From: a virus
Reading direction: 5' to 3' (one strand)
Virus record (IMG/VR): IMGVR_UViG_3300047564_001181
Span: 1-64,000 of that record
Length of the DNA: 64,000 nt
In this document: positions 7,191 to 43,800 of the stretch, one piece after another
Numbering within the stretch: position 1 is the first letter of the stretch
How the letters are laid out: the number at the start of each line of letters is the position of its first letter
Made by a program: the position numbers and the translations under genes
Notes under the pieces: generated by a model
What the model was told of the DNA's origin: nothing
Seen by the model: only the letters and a program-made list of their open reading frames with translations
Database searches by the model: none

Positions 7191-7399
7191 TGGGATACAT
7201 AGAAATAATTTCATTTGATGAAAATGGAGTAACTAAAAAAAATCTTAATGAATTAAATTTTGATGAAAGAGTTTCATTAGAGGTTGATGTAGATTTAGCA
7301 TTATCAGGATTTGAAAAAGTGCAACTGCTCTGCGTAAATTGTTTAGTTGAAATTCCTAGTGGCTCAGGATTTTATTGCAAAAAACATTTACCCAAGTAG
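7190..7399 (+). CDS. Hypothetical protein with C-terminal CxxC...CxxH
   Basis: ORF track; TAATG coupling. Confidence 0.6.
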   Translation: MGYIEIISFDENGVTKKNLNELNFDERVSLEVDVDLALSGFEKVQLLCVNCLVEIPSGSGFYCKKHLPK

Positions 7400-7566
7400 T
7401 GAGATGAGCTGTCTCACCATTTGAAACGGGGGACCCCGCCGTGTGATGCACATCACAAAAATAGTTATACTCACAAGTAACTAAACTGCCTAAAAATAGG
7501 TACAAAATAGGACATATTCAATTTCCAATGTCAGACCCCCTATGTATACTCAGACCTATAAACACC

Positions 7567-7623
7567 GAGAGTGTGAGCCTCGCAAATAATCCCGAAAGGG
7601 TGAGCCGAGCAAATAAAACTCTC
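7567..7623 (+). ncRNA. Candidate pseudo-symmetric structured 5' leader, copy 1
   Basis: GAGAGT/ACTCTC outer stem, CCC-GAAA-GGG inner hairpin, two TGAGCCNNGCAAATAA strands. Confidence 0.6.
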
Positions 7624-7642
7624 ACTAAAGAAAGGTAATCAG

Positions 7643-7786
7643 ATGATTGCACTAGAAGTAATAGAAAGTGCAGAAACTATTTTCTGCGAAATTCATTCAG
7701 ACTATGTTCATAGTGCTGAGTGTGTTGATTGCGAAATGAGTTCGTGTGCCGATTGCTTACGCTCATTCGGTTGCGATAACTGCTAA
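7643..7786 (+). CDS. Cys-rich microprotein similar to 5584..5730
   Basis: GAAAGGT RBS; CxxH, CxxC, CxxC, CxxC. Confidence 0.65.
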   Translation: MIALEVIESAETIFCEIHSDYVHSAECVDCEMSSCADCLRSFGCDNC

Positions 7787-7824
7787 CCATAACTAAATAA
7801 ATTTTACTAAGAAAGGAAGTCACT

Positions 7825-8022
7825 ATGACTAACTCAATAACTATCACCCTTGAAGGTCAGTATGCTGGCTGGAATGTAACCTACTTTGAAGGTTGCACCG
7901 TTTGCGAAAATGCAAAGGCTGAAAATAAGCCTCCGTTTATCTATCACAATAACTGTCTCTATGGTGGACGCAAAGTCGGTCACTCATCTGACGGTCACTG
8001 CACCGCTGACGCTTGCTACTAA
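7825..8022 (+). CDS. Cys/His-rich small protein
   Basis: AAAGGAAG RBS; CxxC...H..C...H....HC...C. Confidence 0.65.
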   Translation: MTNSITITLEGQYAGWNVTYFEGCTVCENAKAENKPPFIYHNNCLYGGRKVGHSSDGHCTADACY

Positions 8023-8089
8023 AATAGCAAGTTTCAATGTCAGACCCCCCTGCTATACTAATCCCATAACCAAACGAAAGGAAAACTCT

Positions 8090-8215
8090 ATGAATCTCCA
8101 AGAGTTTCAAGCCAAAGTCCAAGCAGACCGCTTGGCACAAGCGGAACAACTCCGCAAAGAAAACCTTGCAAAGTCTGCAAAGTTTCTCGCTACTCTAACT
8201 AAGGAAGGAAAGTAA
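8090..8215 (+). CDS. Small helical protein
   Basis: RBS; MNLQEFQAKV... Confidence 0.6.
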   Translation: MNLQEFQAKVQADRLAQAEQLRKENLAKSAKFLATLTKEGK

Positions 8216-8392
8216 AATGTCATCACTCTTTTACTTTGATTTTTATTTTGATACAATCAACGGATTGATTATCGAATTCCCATTTCTGAATCTGCAAATT
8301 GCTCCGTCAGTTATTTATCTTTTTATTTTGACAATTATCGCTTTGCGAATTCGTAAAGTTTATTTTCTAGATAGAAAGCGTGGTCGCAGATA

Positions 8393-8557
8393 ATGATGAC
8401 TAGAAAAGACTATGTGCGAACCGCTGAAATTCTAAACACATTCAAAGATGAAATTGATAAAACAATTTTTGAAGATTTGATTTTCAACTTTGGCGAAATG
8501 TTTGCAATTGATAATCCAAATTTTGACCCTGCAAGATTTTCTCAGGCTTGCAAATAA
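8393..8557 (+). CDS. Small protein, MTRKDY...DNPxFD..RF..AC family, copy 1
   Basis: Paralogue of 10469..10645. Confidence 0.7.
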   Translation: MMTRKDYVRTAEILNTFKDEIDKTIFEDLIFNFGEMFAIDNPNFDPARFSQACK

Positions 8558-9049
8558 TCTAAACCCGCAGGGCGTGTCGGATTGACACGCCCGAGGGCGG
8601 GGGACCCCGCATAACGATTTAATAACAAAAAGATACACCCTATAGGATAAGCTTGAATTATCTACCCAAAATAGGGCAATCACCTATTTTCAATGTCAGA
8701 CCCCCTCGCTAGTATTGGGTTTCCAACCCACTACGAAAGGTTCACTGTGAGCAACTACTATGATGATGACTACTACGAGCAGGAAGGTTCGGTCACCTAC
8801 ATTGGTGACTGCTCCTGCTATGACAACTACATCTGTCGGAGTTGTTTGCAAAAGTGGTAAGGGGCTAATTGGTAGGGCGACCAAAACATTTGGCTGCCCT
8901 ACCAAATCCAAAGGCGGGGGACCCCCCTTGTGGATAACTCGTGTGACGGACATCACAAAAAAAATATTTATCCACAGCCCATTTTGTCCCGATTTTAGGG
9001 CTTCCAATGTCAGACCCCCCTTGTATAATTCTACTATGAAAATTAAATA

Positions 9050-9118
9050 GTGAGCGTTTAGGTGAGCCTAGCAAATAAGTCAGAAATGAATGAGCCTAGC
9101 AAATAAACTAAACGCCAC
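9050..9118 (+). ncRNA. Candidate pseudo-symmetric structured 5' leader, copy 2
   Basis: GCGTTTAG/CTAAACGC outer stem, TCA-GAAA-TGA inner hairpin, two TGAGCCTAGCAAATAA strands. Confidence 0.6.
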
Positions 9119-9148
9119 AAAATAAACTTACTAAAGAAAGGTTCTTAA

Positions 9149-9271
9149 ATGAATACTGAAAATGAAAATAAAGAAATCACTTGTGAAATGTGTTTAATCT
9201 TTGGTGAATACACTCACATTGCTTATGTAAATGGTCACGGATACCATTGCACTTGTGACCGCTGTTTCTAA
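9149..9271 (+). CDS. Cys/His-rich microprotein
   Basis: GAAAGG RBS; CEMC...HCTCDRC. Confidence 0.6.
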   Translation: MNTENENKEITCEMCLIFGEYTHIAYVNGHGYHCTCDRCF

Positions 9272-9324
9272 CAGCGTGTCATACCCCTATGCTACAATTT
9301 CTCCCATAACGAAAGGTAAACTAA

Positions 9325-42148: not shown

Positions 42149-42149
42149 G

Positions 42150-42221
42150 CTGGAATGATAGGATTCGAACCTATAGCCCGCCGATTAACAGTCGGCTGCT
42201 CTGCCATTGAGCTACACTCCA
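42150..42221 (-). tRNA. tRNA-Asn(GUU)
   Basis: Cloverleaf; CCGA-CT-GTT-AA-TCGG; CCA not encoded. Confidence 0.9.
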
Positions 42222-42225
42222 AAAG

Positions 42226-42388
42226 TGGATAGGTGGATTGCTTTTTACCACCACGGATAAGCCAGCAATACATCTAAGTACCGCTTTCATCCGACCAGAC
42301 CTTTGTTCCGCTAAGAACAGAGACGCTAATCTCAGACCTGTGCTTTACTCTCCCCTTGCTGGCAAAGAGATTCGTTCAGCCATATCCC
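42226..42388 (-). ncRNA. Candidate structured ncRNA between tRNAs
   Basis: GGATA/TATCC ends, GCCAGCAA/TTGCTGGC long-range stem, GGTGG/CCACC hairpin; no ORF. Confidence 0.45.
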
Positions 42389-42413
42389 AAATTCTTCGTC
42401 AAGAATTTGTTTG

Positions 42414-42485
42414 AGCCTTCTATCCGATTTGAACGGATGACCCTCGCATTACAAGTGCGATGCTCTACCACTGAGCTAAGAAGGC
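42414..42485 (-). tRNA. tRNA-Thr(UGU)
   Basis: Cloverleaf; TCGCA-CT-TGT-AA-TGCGA. Confidence 0.9.
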
Positions 42486-42532
42486 GAACTCCATAAAGCA
42501 AATATACCCTATGGAGAACGATTTGTCAAGAG

Positions 42533-43327
42533 TTACTTGACTTTATTTGCAAGTTTTTTAAACTCTGCGAATGTCTTTGGACCAACTACAGCATCAGCAG
42601 TTCCAAACTTTGGATTTGCTTTTTGCCAAGCAACTACTGCTTTTCTAGTTACAGGACCATACTGACCATCTACTGCTTTACCAGTAAATCCAAGAGCCTT
42701 CTGAATAACCTTAATGTATTCTCCAACCTCGCCTGGCTGAATTGGGTCATTTGGATATGCTGCTGGGTCATGTGGCTTTTCAGCCTTTGGCTTAATTGCC
42801 TTTACTGGACCTGGGAACTTAGGACGACCAAAGCCAACAATGCTGACCTGAACGCCCTTCTTGTTCTTTTTGTATCCACGAATCTTCTTTAGAACCATAC
42901 CACCATTTCTTTGGTCTCCAGTAACACCAGCAGTGTTACCTTCAACAGTAGTTACGGTTCCATCGCCATTGTCTTTAATAACAATACCGACATGAGAAAT
43001 CCTCTCAACGCCATCTCCAGGAAAATTGAAATAAGCGACATCTCCTGGTTGTGGCTTTGCATCATCTGCATCAGACCATGCTTTTGCCTTTTCAAATGCT
43101 GCTGCACCGTTAGGAGTATAGATTGTTGCTTTATCTCCAGGAAGTTTAAATCCTGCCTGATTTGCACACCAAATTACGAATGAACCACACCATGCAACAA
43201 AGTTAGCACCAGTGAATGCACCGTATTTAGTTTGATTATCTTTTGGACCTTCAACAACGCCGACTTCTTTGAGAGCAACCTCAACAAATTTTTCGGCAGT
43301 GCCAAGTTCCGCTGGTTTCTTAGCCAT
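42533..43327 (-). CDS. Endolysin: CHAP/NlpC-P60-like peptidase plus peptidoglycan-binding domain
   Basis: WCGSFV, SHVGIV, VEGNT; C-terminal DGQYGP.T..AV..WQ...D.VVGPKT. Confidence 0.9.
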   Translation of the reverse strand: MAKKPAELGTAEKFVEVALKEVGVVEGPKDNQTKYGAFTGANFVAWCGSFVIWCANQAGFKLPGDKATIYTPNGAAAFEKAKAWSDADDAKPQPGDVAYFNFPGDGVERISHVGIVIKDNGDGTVTTVEGNTAGVTGDQRNGGMVLKKIRGYKKNKKGVQVSIVGFGRPKFPGPVKAIKPKAEKPHDPAAYPNDPIQPGEVGEYIKVIQKALGFTGKAVDGQYGPVTRKAVVAWQKANPKFGTADAVVGPKTFAEFKKLANKVK

Positions 43328-43372
43328 ATATTTTTTACCTCTTCTAATTAGATTTGATAGCTTGGCTATCAG

Positions 43373-43445
43373 CACCCTATACGAGATTCGAACTCGTGGT
43401 CTCTTCCGTGAGAGGGAAGCGTCCTTACCGCTAGACCAATAGGGC
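43373..43445 (-). tRNA. tRNA-Glu(CUC)
   Basis: Cloverleaf; CTTCC-CT-CTC-AC-GGAAG. Confidence 0.85.
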
Positions 43446-43469
43446 TTGGATATAGATTATATCATTTAG

Positions 43470-43727
43470 TGGAGCATATGGGAATTGAACCCATGTCCAA
43501 ATAGTTTCTGTCTAAACGGAATTACAGCAATTTGTTTTTATTACGGTTTGTTTTTTCTTTTTGTTTTGCAACTTTCTGTTCCCAAGGAGTTGCCCCTCGG
43601 CACTGCTATGCAGCTAGTGCGAGAGCGTTTTGTGTTACGCCGTTTATTATTTTGTGTCGTTTTAGAAGTCTACACAACTTCTGCTGCCGTGTTAGATTTC
43701 GGCTATCTGTCGAAACCTGTATGCCCC
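43470..43727 (-). ncRNA. ssrA: tmRNA
   Basis: GGGGCAT/ATGCTCC-A acceptor with G3.U70, TTCGAC, T-arm; tag frame (A)GVTQNALALAA*. Confidence 0.9.
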
Positions 43728-43728
43728 G

Positions 43729-43800
43729 CACCCCTGGCAGGATTCGAACCTGCGACCAATAGCTTAGAAGGCTACTGCTCTTCCACTGAGCTACAGAGGT
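43729..43800 (-). tRNA. tRNA-Arg(UCU)
   Basis: Cloverleaf; TAGC-CT-TCT-AA-GCTA. Confidence 0.9.

Follow-up and report, generated by a model that had tools for sequence, protein, structure and literature searches.

The stretch of DNA analysed here, which we call the window, comprises the first 64,000 nucleotides (nt) of the IMG/VR virus record IMGVR_UViG_3300047564_001181 (95,186 bases in its entirety), and within it two short genes for cysteine-rich proteins are each preceded by a leader element whose transcript folds into an elaborate hairpin. The order is the same in both copies: a putative promoter of the form TGTCAGACC-N7-TAtAnT, the hairpin, a GAAAGG Shine–Dalgarno sequence and a micro-open reading frame (micro-ORF) rich in Cys codons (Table 1). 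An initial annotation, made from the letters of the sequence, had placed two such leaders on the + strand between a promoter-like site of the PafBC type and a Cys-rich micro-ORF, and reading of the sequence finds both of them exactly there. The 16-mer TGAGCCNNGCAAATAA has exactly four copies in the entire record, and all of them lie in the window and on the + strand (7574, 7601, 9063 and 9091). The record itself is siphovirus-like, with a DnaE-type polymerase, DnaB, TerL, tRNAs, a tmRNA and a manA RNA. Since its polymerase is closest to those of Streptomyces phages (55 % identity) and its DNA is found in freshwater metagenome DNA runs, the host is probably an actinobacterium of fresh water.

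The two elements are real structured RNAs with covarying stems. Each has the architecture of a rod, in which an outer helix (P1) leads into an internal loop, a central helix (P2), the same loop rotated by 180 degrees, and a terminal helix (P3); in every internal loop a 5-nt strand, UGAGC, lies opposite a 7-nt strand, CAAAUAA. Minimum-free-energy folding with ViennaRNA gives P1, P2 and P3 for both window copies (z-scores −2.4 and −3.4), and so recovers the outer stem and the 3-base-pair (bp) GAAA hairpin that had been described for each. The 16-nt strands first regarded as the conserved units do recur four times, but each combines three segments, of 5, 4 and 7 nt, the outer two being loop strands and the middle one a strand of a helix. 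Likewise, the positions written as NN within them are mutually complementary, TC being matched by GA in copy 1 and TA by TA in copy 2, and they form part of the 4-bp P2. When IMG/VR was scanned with the first NN other than TA and the second left free, four contigs were found, all four with TC matched by GA and none uncompensated; as all four have the P1 of window copy 1, they represent a single evolutionary event. Copies homologous to window copy 1, alike in P1 and with P2 in the TC/GA form, lie in loci L075, L084, L140 and L141. We also observed that the invariant 16-mer (7574–7589 and the other three) includes all three stop codons, TGA, TAG and TAA, and that the leader ahead of it, CATAACAATTAAATAAG, carries TAA in all three frames, which may be coincidence or a means to halt ribosomes arriving from upstream.

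Table 1. Window coordinates of the two leader hairpins, their parts and the adjoining features
Feature	Position	Strand	Composition and basis
Leader hairpin 1	7567–7623	+	Double inverted module; sequence, fold, covariance model
Hairpin 1, P1	7567–7572 with 7618–7623	+	
Hairpin 1, purine pair after P1	7573/7617	+	G7573/A7617
Hairpin 1, loop 1	7574–7578 opposite 7610–7616	+	UGAGC opposite CAAAUAA
Hairpin 1, P2	7579–7582 with 7606–7609	+	CUCG with CGAG
Hairpin 1, loop 2	7583–7589 opposite 7601–7605	+	CAAAUAA opposite UGAGC; U7590 bulged
Hairpin 1, P3	7591–7600	+	CCC-GAAA-GGG, including the GAAA loop
Leader hairpin 2	9050–9118	+	Double inverted module; sequence, fold, covariance model
Hairpin 2, P1	9054–9061 with 9108–9115, plus 9050–9052 with 9116–9118	+	
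Hairpin 2, purine pair	9062/9107	+	G9062/A9107
Hairpin 2, loop 1	9063–9067 opposite 9100–9106	+	UGAGC opposite CAAAUAA
Hairpin 2, P2	9068–9071 with 9096–9099	+	CUAG with CUAG
Hairpin 2, loop 2	9072–9078 opposite 9091–9095	+	CAAAUAA opposite UGAGC
Hairpin 2, purine pair	9079/9090	+	G9079/A9090
Hairpin 2, P3	9080–9089	+	UCA-GAAA-UGA, including the GAAA loop
Putative promoter of leader 1	7529–7550	+	TGTCAGACC-N7-TATACT, RecA-NDp/PafBC-like class; regular-expression scan
Putative promoter of leader 2	9008–9029	+	TGTCAGACC-N7-TATAAT; regular-expression scan
A/U-rich 5' leader segment	9036–9049	+	AUGAAAAUUAAAUA; its AAUUAAAUA(A/G) part precedes most motif copies of other phages
Shine–Dalgarno sequence 1	7630–7635	+	GAAAGG
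Micro-ORF 1	7643–7786	+	Cys-rich, 47 amino acids
Shine–Dalgarno sequence 2	9136–9141	+	GAAAGG
Micro-ORF 2	9149–9271	+	Cys-rich, 40 amino acids

The element is widespread among uncultured phages. Scanning IMG/VR for the exact pattern of the double 16-mer gave at least 120 contigs, and the element as such is present in at least 190; the counts of loci and of contexts given here rest on the matches listed. A covariance model made from 8 gap-free copies from other phages scores window copy 2 at 69.9 bits (E 7.4e-19) and copy 1 at 54.5 bits (E 4.7e-14), with the next match in the window at 13.8 bits, so that the window copies cannot be ascribed to chance; applied to phage contigs, it gave 116 hits in 100 loci. 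RNAalifold on a raw MAFFT alignment was unsuitable, since P1 and P3 shift register between two flank variants (a purine–purine pair versus a bulged pyrimidine), and the structure was instead specified by hand and the copies realigned by the covariance model. In this model-fitted alignment of 116 hits, 95.3 % of the cells are paired, changes on both sides are seen in 13 of the 15 pairs, and the covariation score is 0.569, where shuffled columns give 0.10 and slid partners no more than 0.10. The initial observation that the stems differ in sequence and still pair therefore extends well beyond the window, with 39 distinct P1 and 20 distinct P3 helices around the invariant loops. Within these 59 distinct helices G–U occurs 13 times and A–C never, from which it follows that the sense strand, i.e. 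the strand of the downstream gene, is the one that folds, and that the structure belongs to the transcript and not to duplex DNA; the hairpin is always co-oriented with the gene downstream. P2 covaries as well (CUAG:CUAG, CUCG:CGAG, CUAC:GUAG and a 5-bp CUAAG:CUUAG), and the CUAC:GUAG and CUAAG:CUUAG versions come from copies found by the model and not by the pattern. The 12 loop nucleotides are essentially invariant, also in copies that lie outside the pattern selection, and the only changes seen are CGAAUAA and CAAGUAA. Beside the variable helix there is either a purine–purine opposition (A/G 29, G/A 14 and A/A 6 times) or one bulged pyrimidine 3' of CAAAUAA.

This RNA family is new and has no Rfam entry, in line with the initial annotation, which recognized no known family; the general kind, a leader RNA element, is known, and the modular architecture described below is unusual. 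Searching the whole window with the 4227 covariance models of Rfam 15 at their gathering thresholds returned only the tmRNA, the manA RNA and tRNAs, and region 7400–9300 at E ≤ 10 gave a single match, 19 nt of the CCCGAAAGGG hairpin that resemble TCV_H5 by chance and score 17 bits where 70 would be required. No description of the motif was found in a literature search, and a catalogue of candidate viral RNAs published in 2023 with 10,006 entries (PMC10690425) may include it unnamed.

Comparison of the copies establishes that the unit of the element is the asymmetric internal loop, 5'-(R)UGAGC-3' opposite 5'-CAAAUAA(R/Y)-3', with a helix that covaries freely at one end and a short one, usually CUAG, at the other. 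Hairpins carry one, two or three such loops, the commonest form being the two inverted loops seen in the window. Single-module hairpins, which run P1, UGAGC, a short hairpin, CAAAUAA and P1', occur at L066:1563-1602, at L061:2652-2696 and in L105 at about position 7205, and a tandem of modules in the same orientation lies in L061 at about 2647–2725. A dedicated scan for the triple-module form yielded 78 contigs with 51 distinct sequences, all in the same nested order, in which a third loop wraps the inverted pair; the linker helix of 3–8 bp covaries (CUC/GAG, CUCU/AGAG, CUGU/ACAG, CUAU/AUAG, CUU/AAG and longer versions), and P2 of this class is mostly CUAC:GUAG. Since single, same-orientation tandem (linkers of 3–8 bp) and triple forms share one loop, symmetry is not essential, and we do not take it for a defining property from which a symmetric ligand or an obligate dimer would follow; the initial annotation had considered it suited to a symmetric ligand or a dimeric protein. 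At triple-module loci (e.g. L164, L168, L174 and L184) a second small hairpin, GAUAAC-ACAAG-GUUAUC, follows about 15 nt 3' of the main one and is itself directly followed by CGAAUAA; lying just before the Shine–Dalgarno sequence, this heptamer looks like a half-module, a 7-nt strand without its UGAGC partner. The 5' leader sequence AAUUAAAUAAG also resembles the 7-nt strand.

The carriers form a clade of siphovirus-like freshwater phages of roughly 100 kb. Hairpins number 1–3 in each of five complete or nearly complete genomes (100–112 kb), whose TerL is 55–67 % identical to that of the window phage; in five closer TerL relatives the covariance model found no match, but these records are fragments of 26–72 % completeness and thus uninformative. 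Among the isolated phages of INPHARED there was no similarity to the 4.5-kb region and the motif was absent. In GTDB, at one genome per species, there were five matches, of which four are short contigs of metagenome-assembled genomes (MAGs), probably mis-binned phage DNA, and the fifth an unrelated 21-bp tandem repeat, so that the element is effectively absent from cellular genomes. The repeat, in a Chitinophagales MAG (JAAFIM010000003.1; L129:380-600), consists of about ten units of CATTGAGCCRCGCAAATAACA with TGAGCCNNGCAAATAA; it was set aside as unrelated because the 16-mer has no pairing partner there, and it calls for caution in censuses made by pattern alone.

Upstream, 71 of 78 distinct contexts contain a promoter-like site, 60 of them TGTCRG-N-TAnnnT and 11 TTGACN-N16-18-TAnnnT. 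The end of the −10 box lies 11–41 nt before P1 in nearly all contexts, with three outliers at up to 50 nt, and an A/U-rich (C)AUAACAAUUAAAUAA segment usually stands 5' of the hairpin; the element would be transcribed within the first 10–80 nt from the promoter (about 40–110 nt in the TTGACT class). Because most contigs from other phages have a TGTC-class site ahead of the motif, this class is common to the whole clade. What lies downstream is much less uniform: the first ORFs encode proteins of 35–75 amino acids from unrelated families, the commonest protein family within 3 kb is found in 37 of 66 contexts and none is commoner, and the start codon is 24 to more than 100 nt from the motif. In about ten contexts (L005, L032, L041, L053, L059, L061, L069, L072, L076 and L103) a second operator and promoter intervene between motif and gene. 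Locus L103 has three hairpins within 400 nt. One lies at the end of the preceding operon, directly behind a stop codon and ahead of a GC-rich border element; of the other two, one follows a TTGACT and one a TGTCAG promoter, these promoters standing in succession.

Several further features of these control regions were observed. The window has eleven promoter-like sites of the form TGTC(A/G)(G/T)-N-TAnnnT between 5731 and 13128 on the + strand (e.g. 7529, 8038, 8694, 9008 and 9277), two of which have the hairpin; each is followed within about 15–25 nt by ...AUAAC...GAAAGG and then a small ORF. They resemble the actinobacterial RecA-NDp/PafBC class, and no WYL/PafBC-like protein was found in the window phage record. 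Fourteen palindromes of a G-run, W and a C-run (GGGGGACCCC or GGGGTCCCCC), which have no U-tail and may be terminators of a U-tract-less kind, lie at the borders of early cassettes (6484, 7428, 8599, 8916, 9609, 10820, 11596, 12841, 13935, 15066, 16348, 17409, 19020 and 20262), and similar elements come 3' of motif copies in L103 and L071. Inverted repeats of the form GTGTGA-N5-6-TCACAC, which are CRP/GlxR-like, stand upstream of early promoters in the window (7441–7470 and 8943–8968) and at many loci (e.g. L059:7680-7700), and in L053, L059, L061 and L069 the 3' strand of P1 (GUGACC) overlaps the GTGTGA-type box of the next promoter. In a complete relative of 111.9 kb, the divergent control region (L061:2190-2380) holds arrays of CCCCTATATA and AAGACTGGTCATGTG repeats, which may be iterons of an origin or of a regulator; a TTGACT promoter with the motif lies shortly downstream of them. 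Away from the early region, the manA RNA (Rfam RF01745, 82 bits) lies between two tRNA genes, beside the phage tmRNA (tag GVTQNALALAA), in a cluster of four tRNAs (42222–42406 and 43467–43727, both on the − strand; tRNAs at 42149–43800).

Considering how such an element might work, we favour, with a probability that we would put at roughly 45 %, the view that the hairpin serves a protein or RNA polymerase as a multivalent recognition site and acts in cis on early transcripts. Invariant loops set in freely changing stems, together with the variable number and spacing of the modules, suggest that every loop is an independent docking site for a macromolecule. Each loop would fold into a fixed non-Watson–Crick module that exposes adenines, and each module would dock one copy of a trans-acting macromolecule, either RNA polymerase itself or an RNA-binding protein from phage or host, with several modules per hairpin providing avidity. 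Since the element is promoter-proximal, independent of the ribosome-binding site and present only 1–3 times per genome, its action would be in cis and on the whole early transcript, and the resemblance to the nut and put RNAs of lambdoid phages in promoter-proximal position, in low copy number and in the placing of hairpins behind successive promoters likewise suggests a whole-transcript effect. The effect may be on elongation or on read-through of the GC-hairpin cassette borders, or it may be a selective stabilization or shut-off; it would not be exerted by occluding the start site of the next gene. We further consider it possible, if on balance doubtful, that the portable loop module of about 12 nt, stacked one to three times, defines a new class of phage riboregulator that recruits and reprogrammes the host transcription machinery (by RNA-only or protein-assisted antitermination in phages infecting Actinobacteria) or sequesters a host factor, for instance the regulator behind the PafBC-like promoters. 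Were this so, a few early transcripts would be the master switch of the infection programme.

Several findings weigh against the recognition-site model. In a partial scan with Pfam and PHROGs, 20 window proteins yielded no RNA-binding regulator. The variation in module number and orientation is unusual when compared with the fixed architectures of RNAs that modify RNA polymerase (nut and put), and in L103 and L071 the motif also follows a stop codon and has a GC border element directly downstream, a position that would equally suit 3'-end formation or processing. Finally, the covariation statistics derive in part from an alignment fitted to the covariance model, and many loci are related, so that the counts of cells exceed the number of independent events; for this reason the number of distinct helices is the sturdier figure.

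Of the two functions proposed at the outset, a riboswitch-like RNA and a protein-binding RNA, the latter stays the leading idea and the former has weakened. On the riboswitch reading a small molecule or ion, for instance a cyclic dinucleotide or metal, would bind the loop or the symmetric pair, so that early genes are adjusted to host physiology, and the 5' leader location, the highly conserved internal loops within covarying stems that are the usual signature of an aptamer, and the pseudo-two-fold symmetry of the commonest form all accord with this. We nevertheless regard it as quite unlikely. Neither window copy has a + strand terminator beside it, and in full-leader folds of these copies the Shine–Dalgarno sequence and AUG are not paired with the motif; with downstream ORFs that are unrelated and form no coherent gene set tied to one metabolite, with a promoter often lying between motif and gene and with a variable distance to the start codon, these features argue against both a classical riboswitch and occlusion of the ribosome-binding site. 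Moreover, modules that vary in number (1–3), orientation and spacing are hard to fit to one pocket made from a symmetric pair, and in cellular genomes, at one per GTDB species, the motif was met only on the four MAG contigs that are probably mis-binned phage DNA. A site of RNA processing or stability, either an endoribonuclease site comparable to the RNase III sites of phage T7 or a barrier to 5'–3' decay by RNase J, which would set stable ends of early mRNAs, appears doubtful. A rod-like hairpin with internal loops, located within leaders or intercistronically, whatever the gene that follows, and present also at operon 3' ends just before a border element (L103 and L071), is what such a site might look like; yet a plain decay barrier needs no 12 invariant loop nucleotides, and a total helix that ranges from about 10 to more than 25 bp across single, double and triple forms is unlike substrates whose length RNase III gauges. 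The hairpin would also be preceded by some 10–30 unpaired nucleotides, and is to that extent not a 5'-terminal protective stem, and 1–3 copies per genome do not make a general signal of mRNA punctuation.

The same multivalency, with one to three modules in a hairpin and as many as three hairpins in a 400-nt stretch, could also serve a decoy or sponge acting in trans, whereby an early leader, made in large amounts, would titrate a host protein (a defence sensor, ribonuclease or regulator) and the ORF would be incidental. The hairpins are phage-specific, tied to no gene family and, in the window, located behind the best −10 boxes of their promoter class (TATACT and TATAAT), but no terminator marks off a discrete small RNA, and a place directly after promoters is explained equally well by action in cis; we consider a decoy unlikely. 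Very improbable is a function at the level of DNA, as a direct-repeat operator or a single-stranded DNA hairpin, in spite of the two identical 16-mers that stand in direct repeat just downstream of a promoter and of the unrelated tandem repeat with TGAGCCNNGCAAATAA in the Chitinophagales MAG. The compensatory changes fall in three helices, G–U pairs number 13 and A–C none, the orientation is strictly that of transcription, and the arms between the repeats vary in sequence and yet stay paired; the DNA direct-repeat site that the initial annotation had named as the alternative was accordingly not borne out, the stems being kept as pairs rather than as sequence. On inspection, the core sequences of the hammerhead, hairpin and twister ribozymes, of group II domain 5 and of Y RNA did not fit the motif, and mimicry of an anticodon loop was rejected for want of a U33; an Hfq site of the (AAN)n type was dropped since Actinobacteria are not known to have Hfq.

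If the recognition-site model holds, the hairpin would be an RNA element under strong selection and of wide occurrence in an abundant, uncultured group of freshwater phages, and one in which a small loop is reused singly, in tandem, inverted or in triplicate, an unusual design. This modularity would also make it tractable, as a 40-nt single-module hairpin should suffice for pull-downs, probing and crystallography. The identity of the partner would reveal how early transcripts are controlled in hosts without Hfq, and the partner could provide a new, compact RNA–protein recognition pair for use as a tool.

With respect to known RNA motifs, the loop shows some likeness to recurrent modules in its run of A residues on the longer strand, its flanking purine–purine pairs and its portability in either orientation. 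The internal-loop motif called UAA/GAN, said to have been described by Lee, Gutell and Russell in 2006, reportedly places UAA opposite GAN in a helix-flanked internal loop and is marked by non-canonical pairs and a stack of A residues across the strands, and at the level of sequence the UAA of CAAAUAA does lie opposite the GAG of UGAGC (GAN with N = G). The kink-turn consensus is a 3-nt bulge followed on its strand by G–A, so that tandem sheared G–A and A–G pairs form with a GA of the other strand beside the C-stem; this candidate was rejected, since the longer strand, C-AAA-UAA, has UA where GA is needed and the GA of the shorter strand is separated from P2 by GC. Some riboswitches, namely ydaO (cyclic di-AMP), guanidine-II and NAD+-I, resemble the element in that their 5' leaders contain small units in repeat or a pseudo-symmetry within the structure, but here there is no Rfam match at E ≤ 10, no expression platform and no coherent regulon, and the occurrence is restricted to phages. 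In Cluster K mycobacteriophages, certain genes belonging to different families have conserved non-coding repeats upstream, namely SAS, a 13-nt sequence at the ribosome-binding site, and ESAS, a 17-bp inverted repeat, with 10–20 per genome, and a factor of the host or the phage that binds them has been proposed (PMC3203893). These are likewise actinophage-specific elements upstream of genes of different families; they are, however, conserved in sequence, next to the ribosome-binding site and numerous, whereas in the present element only the loops are conserved, the position is away from the start codon and there are 1–3 copies per genome.

The nut sites of lambda (boxA–boxB) and the put sites of HK022 are cis-acting antitermination RNAs of phage early operons with a fixed architecture. 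Like them, the present element is a short hairpin soon after an early promoter or between cistrons, found 1–3 times per genome with an A/U-rich linear segment before it, and it too would act on the transcript or the polymerase and not on one ribosome-binding site. In position the agreement is close, the −10 box ending 11–50 nt before P1 in 71 of 78 contexts and complete genomes having 1–3 copies. There is, by contrast, no similarity in sequence or secondary structure, and the modules here are one to three in number and interchangeable in either orientation; no N-like protein was recognized among the 20 window proteins scanned with Pfam and PHROGs. The RAT hairpin has two asymmetric internal loops related by pseudo-two-fold symmetry, is bound by dimers of the CAT domains of LicT, SacY and BglG, overlaps a terminator and precedes sugar-utilization operons. 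It shares with the element described here the leader hairpin and the two asymmetric internal loops of pseudo-two-fold symmetry, but here there is no overlapping terminator, the genes are unrelated and single and triple forms exist, and the partial scan of 20 window proteins found no member of the BglG family. On the features tested the element thus belongs to neither group, and the nut and put RNAs and the RAT hairpin are its closest functional analogues.

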